Source of the DNA: Dehalococcoidia bacterium
GTDB lineage: Bacteria; Chloroflexota; Dehalococcoidia; Lucifugimonadales; Australimonadaceae
DNA: 64,000 nt
Assembly: GCA_965206315.1 (NCBI GenBank)
Contig: OZ242210.1
Coordinates: 1,474,822-1,538,821 of the forward strand
Direction of reading: 5' to 3'
The notes under the pieces were generated by a model. The model saw only the letters and a program-made list of their open reading frames with translations, did no database searches and was not told where the DNA came from. Positions 8,340 through 63,040 of the stretch are shown here, in pieces. The stretch's first letter is position 1, and every line of letters starts with the position of its first letter. A program made the translations under genes and the position numbers.

Positions 8340-8995
8340 ATCCTGCCTCCCCTCATCGGCGCTAGCGCGCCCGCCCTCACCCGCCGGGAACACCCTCACC
8401 CACGCACTTTCAGTGCGCTCCCTCTCCCAGAGGGCGAGGGTAGGGAACCGGGCCCCCTCTGAGTGAGGGTCCCCCCCAGGACGCGGGGCAATAGCCCCCG
8501 TCATTCCAGCGAACGCGGGAATCCAGTGGCCTGGCCCCCCGGACGCGGGGCACAGCCCCCGTCATTCTCGCGAAGGCGGGAATCCAGAAGAAGAGCGGAG
8601 CGATGCCGGTCTGACCCCTCGCCCCCTGTGGTGAGGCGCGGTGGGTGTTCCTACCCCTCGCCCCCTGGGAGAGGGAAACGCGCGCCAGCGCGAGGGTGAG
8701 GGCCAACGTGTGACACGCACCCATTGCGCGGACCCGCCCCCATGCCCCACCATGGAACGCGACACCCAACCGAATACCGGACCGACACCCTCGCGGACGA
8801 GCCGCGGGAAAGGGCGCAAAGCCTCCTGAGAGCCAGGAGGCTTTTCCCTTTAAACCCTCACCCGCCACTTCGTGCCTCCCTCTCCCCCAGGGCGAGGGGG
8901 GGAACCGGGGGCCTCCCTGTCTGGCCCCTCGCCCCCTGGGAGAGGGCAACGCGCCTTGGCGTGTGGGTGAGGGTCAATTAATCGGTGGAGAAGAC
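8340..8995. repeat. large mosaic REP-like repeat array
   Basis: Successive units of families B (gcgcccgccctcacccgcc...ccctctccc), E (gtcattccagcgaacgcgggaatccag; gtcattctcgcgaaggcgggaatccag) and A (ccctcgccccctgggagagggaaacgcgcgccagcgcgagggtgaggg). A unique segment at about 8700-8850 interrupts the array. Confidence 0.8.
8818..8851 (+). terminator. intrinsic-terminator-like hairpin with T-rich tail (aaagcctcctg-agagc-caggaggcttt-tccctttaaa)
   Basis: 11-bp stem followed by a T-rich tail, which is unusual in this GC-rich window. It closes a non-repeat segment of about 150 nt. Confidence 0.45.
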
Positions 8996-34160: not shown

Positions 34161-35855
34161 ATGAGGTACGTGCACCGAGGCGCCCGTTTGTTCTCCGTTT
34201 CCCTCCTGCTGGCCGTTACGGCGCTGACGTCCGCCTGCTCCATGCGAACGCAGGACGAAGTCGTTGAGACTCCTCCGGCATCCGGCGAGATACCGCTGCG
34301 CATCCTTGCCCTCAACGACTACCACGGCCACATCGCCACGTCCTCCGACTCCTTCGGCGGCGTGGGGCGCGCCGATTACCTCGCCGCCAACATCGAGGCC
34401 GCACGGGCCGAGGTCGAGAACTCCGTCTTCGTCTCCGCCGGCGACCTCATCGGAGGGTCACCCCTCATCTCCGCGCTCTTCTACGACGAGCCGACCATCG
34501 AGGCGATGAACCTGATGGGGCTGGACTTCAACGGCGTGGGCAACCACGAGTTCGACGAGGGGCTCGCCGAACTCCGGCGGATGCAGCACGGCGGCCCCCA
34601 TCCCGTCGACGGCGACCTTGACGGCGACCCCTTCGGCGGCGCCGATTTCGAGTTCCTTGCGGCCAACGTCATCGAGGACGCCACCGGCGAGACCGTCTTC
34701 CCTCCCTACGCCGTCCGGCGCTACGAAGGCGTTAGCGTCGCGTTCATCGGCCTCACCCTCCTGGGCACTCCGTCGATCGTGTCGCAGTGGGCGGTGGAGG
34801 GCCTGACCTTCCTGGACGAGGCAGAGACGGTCAACGCCCTGGTCCCCGGCCTGCGAGCCGAGGGCGTCGAGGCCATCGTCGTCCTGCTGCACGAGGGCGG
34901 GCGCTCCGACGGCGGGCAGAACGACTGCGGCTCGGGGCTTACCGGCCGCCTCGCCGACGTCGCCGCGCGCATGGACGACGCGGTGGACGTCATCATCGCG
35001 GGCCAGGCCAATGACGAGTTCGTCTGCCAGGTGGACGGGAAGTGGGTCACCATGGCCGACAACCGGGGACGGCTGTTCACGGTCATCGACGCCGCCCTGG
35101 ACCGAGGCACGGGAGACCTCGCGGTGAAGGCCGCCGAGAACGTTCCCAACACCCAGGCCGGGGTCACGCCCGATCCAGCGCTCACGGCACTCATCGACCG
35201 GTACGATGGCCTCTCGGCGCCGCTTGCCAACGCCGTCGTCGGCTCCATCACCGCGGACGTCACCCGCTGGAGGAACGCCGCGGGCGAGTCCGCGCTCGGA
35301 GACGTCGTCGCCGATGCGCACCTGGCGTCGACGCGAGCCGCCGGGAGCGGCGGCGCCGTGGTGGCCTTCATGCACCCCGGCGGCATCCGCGAAGACCTCC
35401 TCTTCGACAGTGCCGGCCCGGAGTCCGACGGGGAGTTGACCTACGGCGAGGCGTTCTCGGTGCTGCCTTTCGGAAACAGCCTCGTCACCGTGTCGCTCAC
35501 GGGCGCCCAGATAGCGGCCCTGCTCGAGTCCCAGTTCCGCGGCTCCACGGACGACACCAGCGATGTCCTCCAGGTCTCGAGCGGGTTCAGCTACACCTGG
35601 GATGCGGCGCGTCCGGTGGGATCGAGGGTGGACATCTCTACCATTGCGATCGACGGCGTCCCGGTCGATCCCGAGGCGACGTACCGCGTCACCGCCAACA
35701 ACTTCCTGGCTGACGGAGGCGACGACTACGCCATACTGAAGCAAGGCACCGAGCGCACCGGCGGCGACGTTGACGTCGCCGCCCTGGTCGCCTACTTCGA
35801 AGCCGCCAGCCCGGTCGCCCCAGGCCCGCAGGACCGCATCACCCGTCTCAATTGA
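34161..35855 (+). CDS. secreted bifunctional metallophosphatase/5'-nucleotidase
   Basis: Signal peptide ending LTSAC (possible lipobox). Motifs ILALNDYHGH and GNHEFDEG, plus a C-terminal 5'-nucleotidase domain (NNFLADGGDDY). Confidence 0.88.
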   Translation: MRYVHRGARLFSVSLLLAVTALTSACSMRTQDEVVETPPASGEIPLRILALNDYHGHIATSSDSFGGVGRADYLAANIEAARAEVENSVFVSAGDLIGGSPLISALFYDEPTIEAMNLMGLDFNGVGNHEFDEGLAELRRMQHGGPHPVDGDLDGDPFGGADFEFLAANVIEDATGETVFPPYAVRRYEGVSVAFIGLTLLGTPSIVSQWAVEGLTFLDEAETVNALVPGLRAEGVEAIVVLLHEGGRSDGGQNDCGSGLTGRLADVAARMDDAVDVIIAGQANDEFVCQVDGKWVTMADNRGRLFTVIDAALDRGTGDLAVKAAENVPNTQAGVTPDPALTALIDRYDGLSAPLANAVVGSITADVTRWRNAAGESALGDVVADAHLASTRAAGSGGAVVAFMHPGGIREDLLFDSAGPESDGELTYGEAFSVLPFGNSLVTVSLTGAQIAALLESQFRGSTDDTSDVLQVSSGFSYTWDAARPVGSRVDISTIAIDGVPVDPEATYRVTANNFLADGGDDYAILKQGTERTGGDVDVAALVAYFEAASPVAPGPQDRITRLN

Positions 35856-50839: not shown

Positions 50840-51247
50840 ATGAACGCGGATGAGTCGATCTGCGTACGGAGAGAGTGTGACCATCCGGCCATCTGCCGAG
50901 GGCTATGCGGTTGTTGTTGGCGCACATGGTGGTTCCAGATCGAGTTGCCTCACCGGATAGAAACATGGCCAAGAGTGGGGATCATGGCATGGCTTGCGGG
51001 TGAAGATCCGCCGCCCTGCGCAGTCGAGGGATGCGATAAGCCCTATGGCCCCGGGTGGGGAGTGGGTGGGGGATATGGCCTCTGCAAGCTCCACTATGGG
51101 CGTGCCTATCGGCATTTCAAGAAGATGGGCGGCGTTGCCGAAGGAGACGAGGGGATATGGTCTGCCTGGCAACCCATAGAGAAAGAGCTCATCGCTAGGC
51201 AGATACAGGACTTGGAATCTCTATTGAGCGAGTCGAACGAAGAGTAA
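50840..51247 (+). CDS. Cys-rich hypothetical protein with two zinc-finger-like motifs of the kind found next to HNH endonucleases
   Basis: C..reC.HP..CRGLC..C and C.veGC.KP......GLCKLHYGRAYRHFKK. SD gaggggagga precedes the ATG. Confidence 0.5.
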   Translation: MNADESICVRRECDHPAICRGLCGCCWRTWWFQIELPHRIETWPRVGIMAWLAGEDPPPCAVEGCDKPYGPGWGVGGGYGLCKLHYGRAYRHFKKMGGVAEGDEGIWSAWQPIEKELIARQIQDLESLLSESNEE

Positions 51248-51299
51248 TGCAGCTATGTTGAGAACAGTAGACAAGTACCGAGAAGGCGACGGAGGCACC

Positions 51300-52301
51300 T
51301 CATCGAAAGGCTGATCGTGTAACAGATACCTGAGGCAGAACCTGTGCAACCGAATGTCTGACCTCATTGAGGAAGCGGTCGGTTGCTTGCGGATGCACTC
51401 GAACCTCCTGGATTACTTTCTGGAGTGAGATTGGTATTCGGGGACACGGTTCGCTGGTATCGACCTGTCTCTTTGACCCCCACGCTCGCCTGATGAAGCT
51501 TCCTAGGCTGAGAAAGTTACTCCTGTCGAGATGTACTATCCTAAGTTCGTTCTCATGGCGATATTTCACATCCTTGTGGGTTGCTATGAATTCAGGTGAG
51601 TATATGTTTATCATGTCGGCTCTCTCGTGGGCCTGATACTCGAGATAGTGCACCTGCCATACGGAAGTATGGTCGTGTTCTTTCAGAGTCTCGTTAAGTT
51701 CACCGAAAGTTGTTCTTACGGTGACCGACCTAGGATTGCTACACAGTGCCCACATTGCTTGTGATTCCAGATTGTTGATGTGCCAGCAATTGACATAACA
51801 AGATTGATAGATATCTTCAAGTACACGGGAAAGCTGCAAGACCGGTGCCATAATGGGTGTTGGCAAGGGTGGCAATTCCACTAGATTGATGAGTTCTTGT
51901 AAGGCAGTGGTAGGCTTTCCTTCAAGAGGATCGACCAGATCCTGCAGACGGGATAGGTAGAGCGACTGGGTGTCAAGCAGATCCTGAAACTTCCAATAGT
52001 CTTGATATCTCCACACAGATAGCGAGCTGGGGAGCCCGGAGCCATTACGCTGAAAAGCATCAGGTGGAAAAATGTGGACACAGTGATCGGGTTCATCTGG
52101 GTTGAGAGTAGTTTCATGGCAAGGCAAATGTCCTCTCACGTACCCTAAAGCCATATAGGGATAGATCTCTATTAGTTTGTGTCCAACAGGATAAGGTCGT
52201 GCCTTAATCTTGATTGGCTTGCCTGCGGCTATGTCCCGCTCTAACTCCACCATGAGAAGAACCCGAAGAAACAAATCCACGATGAAGCGCAGCACTTTCA
52301 T
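51300..52301 (-). CDS. DUF2971 family protein
   Basis: WKFQDLLDTQSLYLSRLQDLVDPLEG and the later YRHENELRIV resemble DUF2971 (recollection). Strongly deviant low G+C. Confidence 0.55.
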   Translation of the reverse strand: MKVLRFIVDLFLRVLLMVELERDIAAGKPIKIKARPYPVGHKLIEIYPYMALGYVRGHLPCHETTLNPDEPDHCVHIFPPDAFQRNGSGLPSSLSVWRYQDYWKFQDLLDTQSLYLSRLQDLVDPLEGKPTTALQELINLVELPPLPTPIMAPVLQLSRVLEDIYQSCYVNCWHINNLESQAMWALCSNPRSVTVRTTFGELNETLKEHDHTSVWQVHYLEYQAHERADMINIYSPEFIATHKDVKYRHENELRIVHLDRSNFLSLGSFIRRAWGSKRQVDTSEPCPRIPISLQKVIQEVRVHPQATDRFLNEVRHSVAQVLPQVSVTRSAFR

Positions 52302-52407
52302 TTGTCCCCTGTCCTAGCACGTCGTATCGACGTATTCCGCCGTGCGCTCCAGCACACTCTGGATTCTCGCCTTCGCGAGAATGACGGGGGCTGCGCCCCG
52401 CGTCCGG

Positions 52408-52457
52408 TTCACCCTCACCGCGCGCTGAAGCGCGTTGCCTCTCCCCTTAAGGGAGAA
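52408..52457. repeat. REP family A unit at the right edge of the low-GC island
   Basis: ttcaccctcaccgcgcgctgaagcgcgttgcctctccccttaagggag. It is preceded by a family E hairpin at 52360-52386. Confidence 0.7.
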
Positions 52458-52460
52458 GTG

Positions 52461-52769
52461 CTATCCCTCCCGCTCCCCGAGCGTGCGGCGCAGGTCGTCC
52501 ACCTCGCGGCGGAGGTCGCGATTCTTGCGCCAGAGGAAGACGGCGTAGGCGAAGAAGCCCGCCCAGGTGAGCAGCGTGCCCGCGAGCAGGTAGCCGAGGT
52601 TGCTCTCGCCCGGCGCGGACTGCGCGATCGGAGCGGCAAGCGCGGCGGGCGAGAACAGCGCGAGCACGATGAGCGTGGCCGTCGCGGCGGCGATGAACCG
52701 GAAGGTGAGGGAGACGGCGATGGCCCGGTGTTCCCGGAAGGTGATGATGGAAGCGAGTCGGTTGCGCAT
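52461..52769 (-). CDS. CcmD-like small membrane protein, N-terminally extended
   Basis: The C-terminal TM plus charged tail GYLLAGTLLTWAGFFAYAVFLWRKNRDLRREVDDL resembles CcmD. The gene starts 8 nt after ccmC. Confidence 0.55.
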   Translation of the reverse strand: MRNRLASIITFREHRAIAVSLTFRFIAAATATLIVLALFSPAALAAPIAQSAPGESNLGYLLAGTLLTWAGFFAYAVFLWRKNRDLRREVDDLRRTLGEREG

Positions 52770-62469: not shown

Positions 62470-62497
62470 GGAGGGGCTGCGCCGCCGCAGCCCCTCC
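62470..62497 (-). terminator. 12-bp-stem hairpin after the peroxiredoxin gene (ggaggggctgcg-N4-cgcagcccctcc), followed by tcgtttcc on the minus strand
   Basis: Perfect inverted repeat 24 nt after the stop codon. Confidence 0.55.
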
Positions 62498-62520: not shown

Positions 62521-62982
62521 CTATCCCTGGAGCTTGCTCAGCTCTTCGAGGATGGCGTTGGGGTCCGGCAGGACGCCCTGGTAGGCCTGGTGGTACCGGA
62601 CGGCGCCCTGCGGGTCGATGATGGTGACGGACCTGGTGCACATGCCGGAGTCCTCGTTGAAGATGCCGTAGGCCCGGGCGACCTCGCCGTGGGGCCAGAA
62701 GTCCGACAGGAGCGAGTGGGCGATCCCGCCCAGATTGGTGCCCCACGACCTGAGGGCGGGGCGGGCGTCGGCACCGAGGCCGAGGACGTGTGCGCCCTTC
62801 TCTTCGAACGACTTCAACGCACGGTTGAAGGTAGCGGTCTGAGTCGTTCAGCCGCCGGTGAACGCGGCGGGGAAGGAGTGGATGACGACCCACTTCTCAC
62901 CCTTGAAGCCGGCGAGGGAGACGTCCTCTCCGTTCTGGTCCTTGAGGGTGAAGTCCGGGGCTTGCTGGCCTACGTCCACCAT
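62521..62982 (-). CDS. AhpE-like peroxiredoxin with an in-frame TGA at the peroxidatic position (candidate selenoprotein, 153 aa)
   Basis: The ATG at 62982 is preceded by aggagg. Translation: MVDVGQQAPDFTLKDQNGEDVSLAGFKGEKWVVIHSFPAAFTGG-TGA-TTQTATFNRALKSFEEKG...LLSDFWPHGEVARAYGIF. The TGA (62848-62850) replaces the catalytic Cys. The ORF track reports only the 3' part (62521-62817). Confidence 0.7.
62805..62850 (-). ncRNA. SECIS-like hairpin immediately 3' of the in-frame UGA (cis element within the mRNA)
   Basis: Lower stem GAACGA/UCGUUC (62805-62810 with 62844-62849), a 13-nt 5' bulge, an upper 7-bp stem CUUCAAC/GUUGAAG (62812-62830) and a loop CGUGC containing GU. Confidence 0.5.
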
Positions 62983-63040
62983 GGTTGAGGCCTCCTGAGA
63001 GGGGGTGTGGCGGGTAGGATACCAGAAAGCGTGGGAGTGC

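Follow-up and report, generated by a model that had tools for sequence, protein, structure and literature searches.

A 64,000-nucleotide (nt) stretch from a Dehalococcoidia bacterium (assembly GCA_965206315.1, contig OZ242210.1, positions 1,474,822 to 1,538,821; hereafter the window, to which coordinates refer unless a contig is named) carries on its minus strand a gene for a peroxiredoxin (Prx) resembling AhpE that is interrupted by one in-frame TGA codon. This gene very probably encodes a selenoprotein, with selenocysteine (Sec) at the peroxidatic position and a functional, if still putative, selenocysteine insertion sequence (SECIS) element just downstream. Comparison of the gene with its relatives directly supports the retention of TGA throughout a clade, its correspondence to Cys in homologues further removed, translation through the TGA, and the conservation of a short RNA element beside it; a conserved local RNA element adjoining a single recoded UGA is in turn a signature of Sec.

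A first-pass annotation of the window, made from its letters alone, had proposed that a Sec-containing peroxiredoxin gene begins at an ATG at 62982 with a good Shine-Dalgarno sequence and continues in frame through the TGA into a 98-residue open reading frame (ORF). Both points are borne out, the former by AGGAGG at 62996-62991 and the latter by translation, and all other statements that it made at the level of sequence were likewise correct. The TGA at codon 45, immediately preceded by FPAAFTGG, is the sole interruption of the frame, which an ORF listing renders as two pieces of 44 residues (62848-62982) and 98 residues (62521-62817, with a TTG start). When Cys is substituted for the stop, the protein matches Pfam PF00578 (AhpC-TSA) with an E value of 1.9e-33 (115.4 bits; cutoff 26), and also matches Redoxin. 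The closest solved structures are entries for Mycobacterium tuberculosis AhpE (Rv2238c; E ~2e-30, 109 bits), followed among Prx subfamilies by BCP (E 1e-16) and the Prx1 type (E 7e-15); the AhpE-like label applied at first pass is upheld by this difference, and as judged by sequence the protein is closer to characterised AhpE than to other Prx subfamilies. Alignment with PDB 1XXU places codon 45 on the Cys45 of M. tuberculosis AhpE (FPLAFTGIC), the very residue to which the TGA had been assigned, and LLSDFWPHG occurs in both proteins.

Relatives were drawn from a large protein collection, from species-representative genomes and from Joint Genome Institute (JGI) metagenomes, with duplicates removed. 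Forty distinct genes, 51-92% identical to the window gene and residing in Dehalococcoidia metagenome-assembled genomes (MAGs) or on marine metagenome contigs of 42-70% GC, form a clade in which TGA occupies the same codon without exception (40/40). At the codon-45 column, 95 distinct and more distant homologues encode Cys (TGC or TGT), which, together with M. tuberculosis AhpE, bears out the alignment of Sec with Cys anticipated in the first-pass annotation. The transition is sharp within the JGI metagenomes, where all 35 relatives sharing 51-92% identity have TGA and all 26 at 48% or less have TGC or TGT. Both close relatives among the species-representative genomes are Dehalococcoidia MAGs with TGA, and the same codon was TGA in eight fetched loci. 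In a neighbour-joining tree the 40 TGA genes are monophyletic, with no Cys member inside. The recurrence of TGA across independent assemblies also disposes of a read error, the risk of which had been raised along with the original proposal.

Pro38 (column -7 relative to the TGA), Thr42 (-3) and Arg117 (+72) do not vary among the 40 clade members, so that the PxxxTxxC/U motif and the catalytic Arg of peroxiredoxins are in place. The enzyme would be of the 1-Cys type: the TGA is followed in the pattern U-T-T-Q-T-A, and none of the 40 proteins has Cys at +5, while many actinobacterial neighbours carry CxxxxC. A further Cys, at position 115, is restricted to a high-GC subclade of seven genes (those of the window, L001, L002, L005, L010, L012 and L094) and is lacking in the other 33. 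No NCBIfam model was reached by the window protein. It scored 64.2 bits against the PrxU equivalog NF040737 (cutoff 270) and 45.1 bits against the Prx-SUH thiol peroxidase selenoprotein model NF045827 (cutoff 298), and therefore belongs to neither of these curated families of Sec-containing peroxiredoxins.

Translation across the TGA is indicated by the pattern of substitution on its two sides. Ratios of nonsynonymous to synonymous change (dN/dS, Nei-Gojobori), calculated separately for the 42 codons ahead of the TGA and the 100 that follow, were 0.05-0.56 in both segments, so that purifying selection, as read from the sequences, acts on both halves of the gene. The first start-like codon beyond the TGA is a TTG at position +11, found in 36 of the 40 genes. 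Codons +1 to +6, which precede it, are conserved as amino acids yet vary synonymously (Gln at +3 is present in 40/40 genes, encoded by CAG in 22 and CAA in 18); since they are conserved as protein ahead of any start-like codon, this segment could be translated only by read-through of the TGA. Elsewhere in the window, TGA terminates ten gene-like ORFs, with in-frame sequence beyond that lacks coding composition, and when read-through was analysed for all gene-like ORFs bounded by TGA, the Prx codon alone showed a coding signature before and after it. A scan of every TGA in the window for flanking coding composition, which might have disclosed a second selenoprotein gene, returned only the positions 35853 and 62082 and the Prx codon itself; the TGA at 35853, considered as a Sec codon, proved to be a plain stop between two neighbouring genes that happen to share a frame.

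The RNA element proposed as a SECIS was first drawn as two helices, with a lower stem that includes the UGA, a 13-nt bulge, and a perfect upper stem of 7 base pairs (bp) closed by the loop CGUGC. All of these parts are present in the window, and the two-stem structure evaluates to -12.1 kcal/mol (with GAACGA/UCGUUC as the 6-bp lower stem). The loop begins 24 nt after the UGA, and its G is nt 29 counting from the U of that codon, in agreement with the spacing of about 29 nt originally given for the apical GU. The 48-nt element is more stable than 199 of 200 shuffled versions (z = -3.4), and the upper hairpin occurs once in the window. A perfect 7-bp stem arose in only 0.85% of synonymous recodings that followed the organism's own codon usage. 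Codons that are rare in the window are employed to build it: TTG (3.6% of Leu codons) is required by the stem, and CGT (7% of Arg codons) by the GU of the loop.

This choice of codons is shared by the clade. Among 51 conserved degenerate columns, the five lowest synonymous entropies are those of codons +7 to +11 (TTC AAC CGT GCG TTG), with a mean of 0.15 bits against 1.38 across the 40 genes. Wherever the amino acid is kept, its codon is nearly fixed (TTC 38/38, AAC 36/36, CGT 37/40, GCG 37/39, TTG 36/36), while the entropy of other Leu and Arg columns is about 2 bits in these genes, and the constraint persists across contigs ranging from 42 to 70% GC. The 95 distinct Cys homologues, taken as a control, have no such trough and use preferred codons. 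The constraint is limited to these 15-17 nt, no other synonymous-site conservation being found downstream of the UGA. As for the pairs themselves, 36-40 of the 40 genes form the core 5 bp, 31 form the sixth pair and 24 the seventh, with the CGUGC loop kept in 36. The upper hairpin is thus retained, under synonymous constraint, in 36 of 40 TGA orthologues, as had been expected at first pass of a genuine element. The lower stem fared differently: its pairs 5-42, 6-41 and 7-40 are kept in 23, 12 and 16 of 40 genes, respectively, and only GAA/UUY is conserved, because coding forces it. A lower stem including the UGA, part of the element as first drawn, is accordingly specific to the subclade of the window.

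One marine contig (L007, 648-1013; 41% GC) holds a gene that is 81% identical to that of L127 and closely related to the low-GC Sec genes, in which the Sec position is TGT (Cys); its hairpin differs by one base, and a conserved Trp codon 14 codons upstream has changed from TGG to TGA. The gene may be a decaying copy in which Cys has recently replaced Sec, or it may reflect an assembly error. A nearly intact hairpin combined with another premature TGA makes it uninformative as a natural control for how the hairpin decays once Sec gives way to Cys, and it was dropped from that role.

Several observations weigh against the reading of this gene as a selenoprotein with a functional SECIS, or dilute the evidence for it. 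The published model of bacterial SECIS elements specifies a loop of 3-9 nt, a stem of 4-16 bp, a G at loop position 1 or 2, a spacing of 16-37 nt and a minimum free energy (MFE) of -7.5 kcal/mol or lower (PMC13188914). The window element complies, with its 5-nt loop, 7-bp stem (5-7 bp in the clade), 24-nt spacing and energy of -12.1 to -17.0 kcal/mol, and the agreement with the bacterial range claimed at first pass therefore stands as a description; it is not evidence in itself, because 67 of 73 Cys controls (92%) also pass such generic criteria. Since these are non-specific, the case for a SECIS rests on the synonymous-site constraint. Raw folding energy, tried as a discriminator, does not separate Sec from Cys genes, because the latter are more GC-rich. 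The MFE structure of the window element (-17.0 kcal/mol) is moreover another fold, with a longer lower stem and different inner pairing. No compensatory double changes were found in the stem, either among nine sequences or among the 40 genes, so that it is kept by sequence identity; RNAalifold applied to the nine sequences does not return the hairpin as a consensus, and for the two-helix model these analyses gave no support beyond identity. A search of the window against Rfam gave no match at gathering thresholds, and a permissive search of 62700-62950 only noise (E = 2.5). Four clade members (contigs L006, at 514-579; L096; L013, at 8822-8887; and L103) do not have the canonical hairpin. They show instead a strong outer stem of 7 bp (CUCCUCG/CGAGGAG) around a small apical hairpin, over the peptide MHRAMK or FHRAMK, in what looks like a remodelling of the SECIS inside one gene family. 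Lastly, no selA, selB, selD or tRNA-Sec gene was detected in the window or in about 1.7 Mb of fetched DNA (by tblastn with Escherichia coli SelA, SelB and SelD, and by ARAGORN), a result that is uninformative rather than negative because only tens of kb per genome were covered.

Some of these points would be accommodated if Sec were inserted as proposed and UUCAAC-CGUGC-GUUGAA were not the element bound by SelB, having another role in the RNA or leaving that function to a different or larger SECIS. The absence of stem covariation, the four members with an alternative outer stem and the thermodynamic optimum of the window sequence, with its other inner pairs, all lean in this direction, as does the report that 12.6% of bacterial selenoprotein genes in BSepDB have no canonical SECIS (PMC13326102). 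On the other hand, the 24-nt position, the size of the loop and its G-U conform to the published model (PMC13188914), and the constraint is confined to 15-17 nt, is missing from the Cys clade and has no counterpart elsewhere downstream. We regard this alternative as improbable, though slightly less so than the three that follow.

The identity of the inserted residue raises another question, since conservation demonstrates read-through without naming the amino acid, and Sec machinery was not found in the DNA searched. UGA could in principle be decoded as a standard amino acid, through a reassigned code (UGA as Trp or Gly) or by a near-cognate tRNA. The termination of ten other gene-like ORFs at TGA, and the plain stop at 35853, speak against reassignment. 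Every non-TGA homologue has Cys at the column in question, where Trp or Gly would abolish peroxidase chemistry, and a conserved RNA element at a single recoded UGA fits Sec rather than a standard residue; decoding of this kind is hence very unlikely. Even less plausible is a pair of genes, in which a true TGA stop ends a 44-residue peptide and a 98-residue protein starts at the TTG at 62817, that codon being kept as a start. In 36 of 40 genes no start-like codon does indeed occur between the TGA and the invariant TTG at +11, where gene callers begin the ORF. The TTG is preceded by no Shine-Dalgarno-like motif, however; codons +1 to +10, ahead of the TTG, are conserved as protein with synonymous variation and would be translated in frame; neither fragment holds a full Prx active site, Thr and Sec lying on one and Arg on the other; and a start codon does not explain why TTC, AAC, CGT and GCG are equally invariant. 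As to a pseudogene or sequencing error, in which TGC or TGT became TGA in a dead or mis-assembled gene, a single base change would suffice and L007 shows that such lesions or errors happen, but all 40 distinct sequences, independently assembled, obtained with different sequencing technologies and as little as 51% identical, have TGA at this codon, with dN/dS below 1 on both sides, invariant Pro, Thr and Arg, and no Cys member in the clade, so that conservation effectively refutes it. Clade-wide conservation, coding sequence on both sides and the use of TGA as a stop elsewhere together exclude, to our mind, reassignment, pseudogenization and sequencing error alike.

Under the favored reading, that of a Sec-encoding AhpE-like gene with its own SECIS, we infer the further steps from the established bacterial mechanism of Sec insertion and from the chemistry of peroxiredoxins. 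UGA at codon 45 would not be read as a stop, and Sec would be inserted in response to a hairpin whose CGUGC loop, 24 nt downstream, would bind SelB and thereby recruit SelB-GTP-Sec-tRNA(Sec). The site formed by Pro38, Thr42, Sec45 and Arg117 would then reduce hydroperoxides by way of a selenolate, which would be oxidised to a selenenic acid and recycled by some thiol reductant. The known reducing system of AhpE is that of mycothiol and mycoredoxin, which is not expected for the window protein.

Table 1. Positions of the proposed selenoprotein gene, its putative signals, and the Group B genes discussed in the text (window coordinates, except where a contig is given).
Feature	Coordinates	Strand	Remarks
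Complete putative selenoprotein coding sequence	62521..62982	-	153 codons (M1...U45...G153) plus TAG; translation, Pfam, PDB, dN/dS
Shine-Dalgarno sequence AGGAGG	62991..62996	-	8 nt upstream of ATG 62982-62980; read from sequence
In-frame TGA, codon 45, proposed Sec codon in the P38-x3-T42-x2-U45 motif	62848..62850	-	TGA in 40/40 clade members
Full stem-loop as drawn at first pass	62806..62850	-	lower stem 62849-62844/62811-62806, 13-nt bulge, upper hairpin; lower stem not conserved
Conserved apical hairpin of putative SECIS, CUUCAAC-CGUGC-GUUGAAG	62812..62830	-	perfect 7-bp stem, 5-nt loop; GU at loop positions 2-3
Codon 115, Cys with one residue between it and the catalytic Arg (GMC-x-R), speculatively a resolving thiol	62638..62640	-	alignment
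Codon 117, conserved catalytic Arg of peroxiredoxins	62632..62634	-	R in 40/40
Stop codon TAG	62523-62521	-	end of the 153-codon frame
Group B member	L017:3077-3523		
Group B member	L037:10001-10447		
Group B member	L039:10001-10453		
Group B member	L084:6245-6691		
Group B member	L062:10001-10447		

Replacement of Cys by Sec in peroxiredoxins has ample precedent. PrxU of Eubacterium acidaminophilum, which the first-pass annotation had invoked with good reason, is described as a biochemically characterised Sec-containing peroxiredoxin of 2001 (cited in PMC13188914), and a family of such proteins designated "Prx, pfam00578, TxxU" by Zhang, Gladyshev and co-workers is established (PMC13188914, a review of 2026). 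In the published surveys, 43 genes of this kind were counted in the Sargasso Sea data in 2005 (PMC1088965), 12 in bacterial genomes in 2006, with five inferred conversions of Cys to Sec (PMC1794560), and 253 in the Global Ocean Sampling data in 2008, where the family ranked among the most abundant selenoproteins (PMC2398784). Within the Dehalococcoidia, BSepDB counts 49 selenoprotein genes in one MAG and 46 in another, which puts both in the top ten of bacteria (PMC13326102) and indirectly favours the presence of Sec machinery in this lineage. The earlier remark that an enzyme of this type would be unusual in the lineage was thus overstated, given those 46-49 selenoproteins and the abundance of TxxU proteins in the sea.

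The window gene shares with the TxxU family its membership in PF00578, the T-x-x-U motif, a marine distribution and the replacement of Cys by Sec within a family that mostly uses Cys. It differs in that the clade is AhpE-like, with hosts among Dehalococcoidia MAGs and marine contigs of unassigned taxonomy; the descriptions of the TxxU genes in those papers give no breakdown by Prx subfamily, and the comparison is one of descriptions. PrxU likewise has Sec at the peroxidatic position by way of an in-frame UGA, but is of a different Prx subfamily and size (its profile spans 233 positions). M. tuberculosis AhpE (1XXU, 1XVW, 4X0X) resembles the window protein in its length of 153 residues, active residue 45, FP-AFTG and LLSDFWPHG motifs, Arg, and lack of Cys at +5; the window protein in turn has Sec for Cys45, an identity of about 40-45%, an origin in another phylum and the Cys115 of its subclade. 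With respect to the RNA, bSECISearch and the fdhF and fdnG elements of E. coli represent the same general design, a stem-loop in the coding region with a small loop and an early G-U at 16-37 nt, although the window element bears no sequence relation to those of E. coli, its conserved part is only a 5-7-bp stem, and its lower stem is not conserved. A literature search combining AhpE with selenocysteine retrieved no title or abstract describing a Sec-containing AhpE, and the assignment of a Sec-containing peroxiredoxin to the AhpE subfamily may therefore be new, with the published sets compared by description.

A second set of TGA-containing Prx genes, here called Group B (Table 1), came to light in these comparisons. 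They have TGA in the same active-site column (FPQAFTPV-U-TSQIP), are about 41% identical to the window protein, and occur in MAGs of Anaerolineales, Anaerolineaceae and Chloroflexia as well as in the isolate Sulfobacillus harzensis DSM 109850. They form a clade separate from that of the window, their nearest relatives being Cys forms from Syntrophaceae-type bacteria, and they carry a different hairpin (AUUCCG...CGGAAU); on these two grounds Group B suggests another, probably independent, Cys-to-Sec conversion.

The surroundings of the gene are also conserved. The longer contigs of relatives contain, as does the window by annotation of its own ORFs, the order thiamine pyrophosphate enzyme, Prx, TrmI-like methyltransferase, Methyltransf_28, citrate synthase and POR. 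In one of them (L002, 12717-13855), a long-read contig, citrate synthase is called as two overlapping pieces of 216 and 176 residues, and is intact at 379 residues in the near-identical L003, so that the split is probably an assembly frameshift error. The 73-nt spacer between the Prx stop and the TrmI-like gene holds a GC-rich inverted repeat, GGAGGGGCUGC...GCAGCCCCUCC, followed by UCGUUUCC, at 62470-62497 on the minus strand. A scan for terminators and promoters around the gene called no intrinsic terminator or promoter, the T-run after this repeat being too short for it to be called. Elsewhere in the window, a low-GC island at 51000-52500 (46-56% GC, the window as a whole having 67%) includes a 333-residue ORF at 51300-52301 on the minus strand, which has no Pfam match. 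Its matches are to phrog_34615 (E 5e-21), whose function is unknown, and to PDC-S31, a candidate defence family of PADLOC (E 5e-9); the ORF is probably a candidate defence gene gained by horizontal transfer.

In public collections the gene is fragmented, as the first-pass annotation had warned that standard gene calling would make it. The seven closest proteins are fragments of 92-121 residues covering the C-terminal 59-78% of the query, and full-length matches, named AhpE or mycoredoxin-dependent peroxiredoxin, begin only at about 48% identity. Wherever the contig of a fragment reaches far enough upstream, a 44-residue AhpC-TSA ORF lies just before it. Every orthologue found in the public protein collection (P0001-P0006 and P0043; L001-L011) is split in this way, its stored C-terminal fragment of 92-102 residues beginning at the TTG of the hairpin or at a later codon, and none is annotated as a selenoprotein. 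As a consequence of this splitting, an antioxidant enzyme is systematically missing from annotations of Dehalococcoidia and related marine organisms, and from the metabolic and redox inventories compiled for them. Putting this right, together with a compact element for experiments, is the chief practical value of the finding.

A more ambitious combination of these points can be put forward tentatively, as a possibility that we rate at somewhat short of an even chance: that this is the first recognised Sec-containing AhpE; that it has been held by an old, monophyletic clade of Dehalococcoidia and marine metagenomes, across 42-70% GC, in which Sec was kept without reversion; that conservation of the SECIS in sequence (UUCAAC-CGUGC-GUUGAA) implies sequence-specific recognition by the SelB of this lineage; and that Cys115 in one subclade may form a selenenylsulfide. 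If true, the last of these would constitute a new resolving arrangement for a peroxiredoxin of the 1-Cys type. From a broader perspective, marine bacteria are already a well-documented source of Sec-containing peroxiredoxins, and the window gene is in this sense a sound but unsurprising member of that company that leaves the understanding of Sec decoding and of peroxiredoxin chemistry unchanged. Its compact and strongly constrained putative SECIS is suited to direct experimental testing, and its clade adds an AhpE-type case to the repeated conversions of Cys to Sec that have marked the peroxiredoxins.

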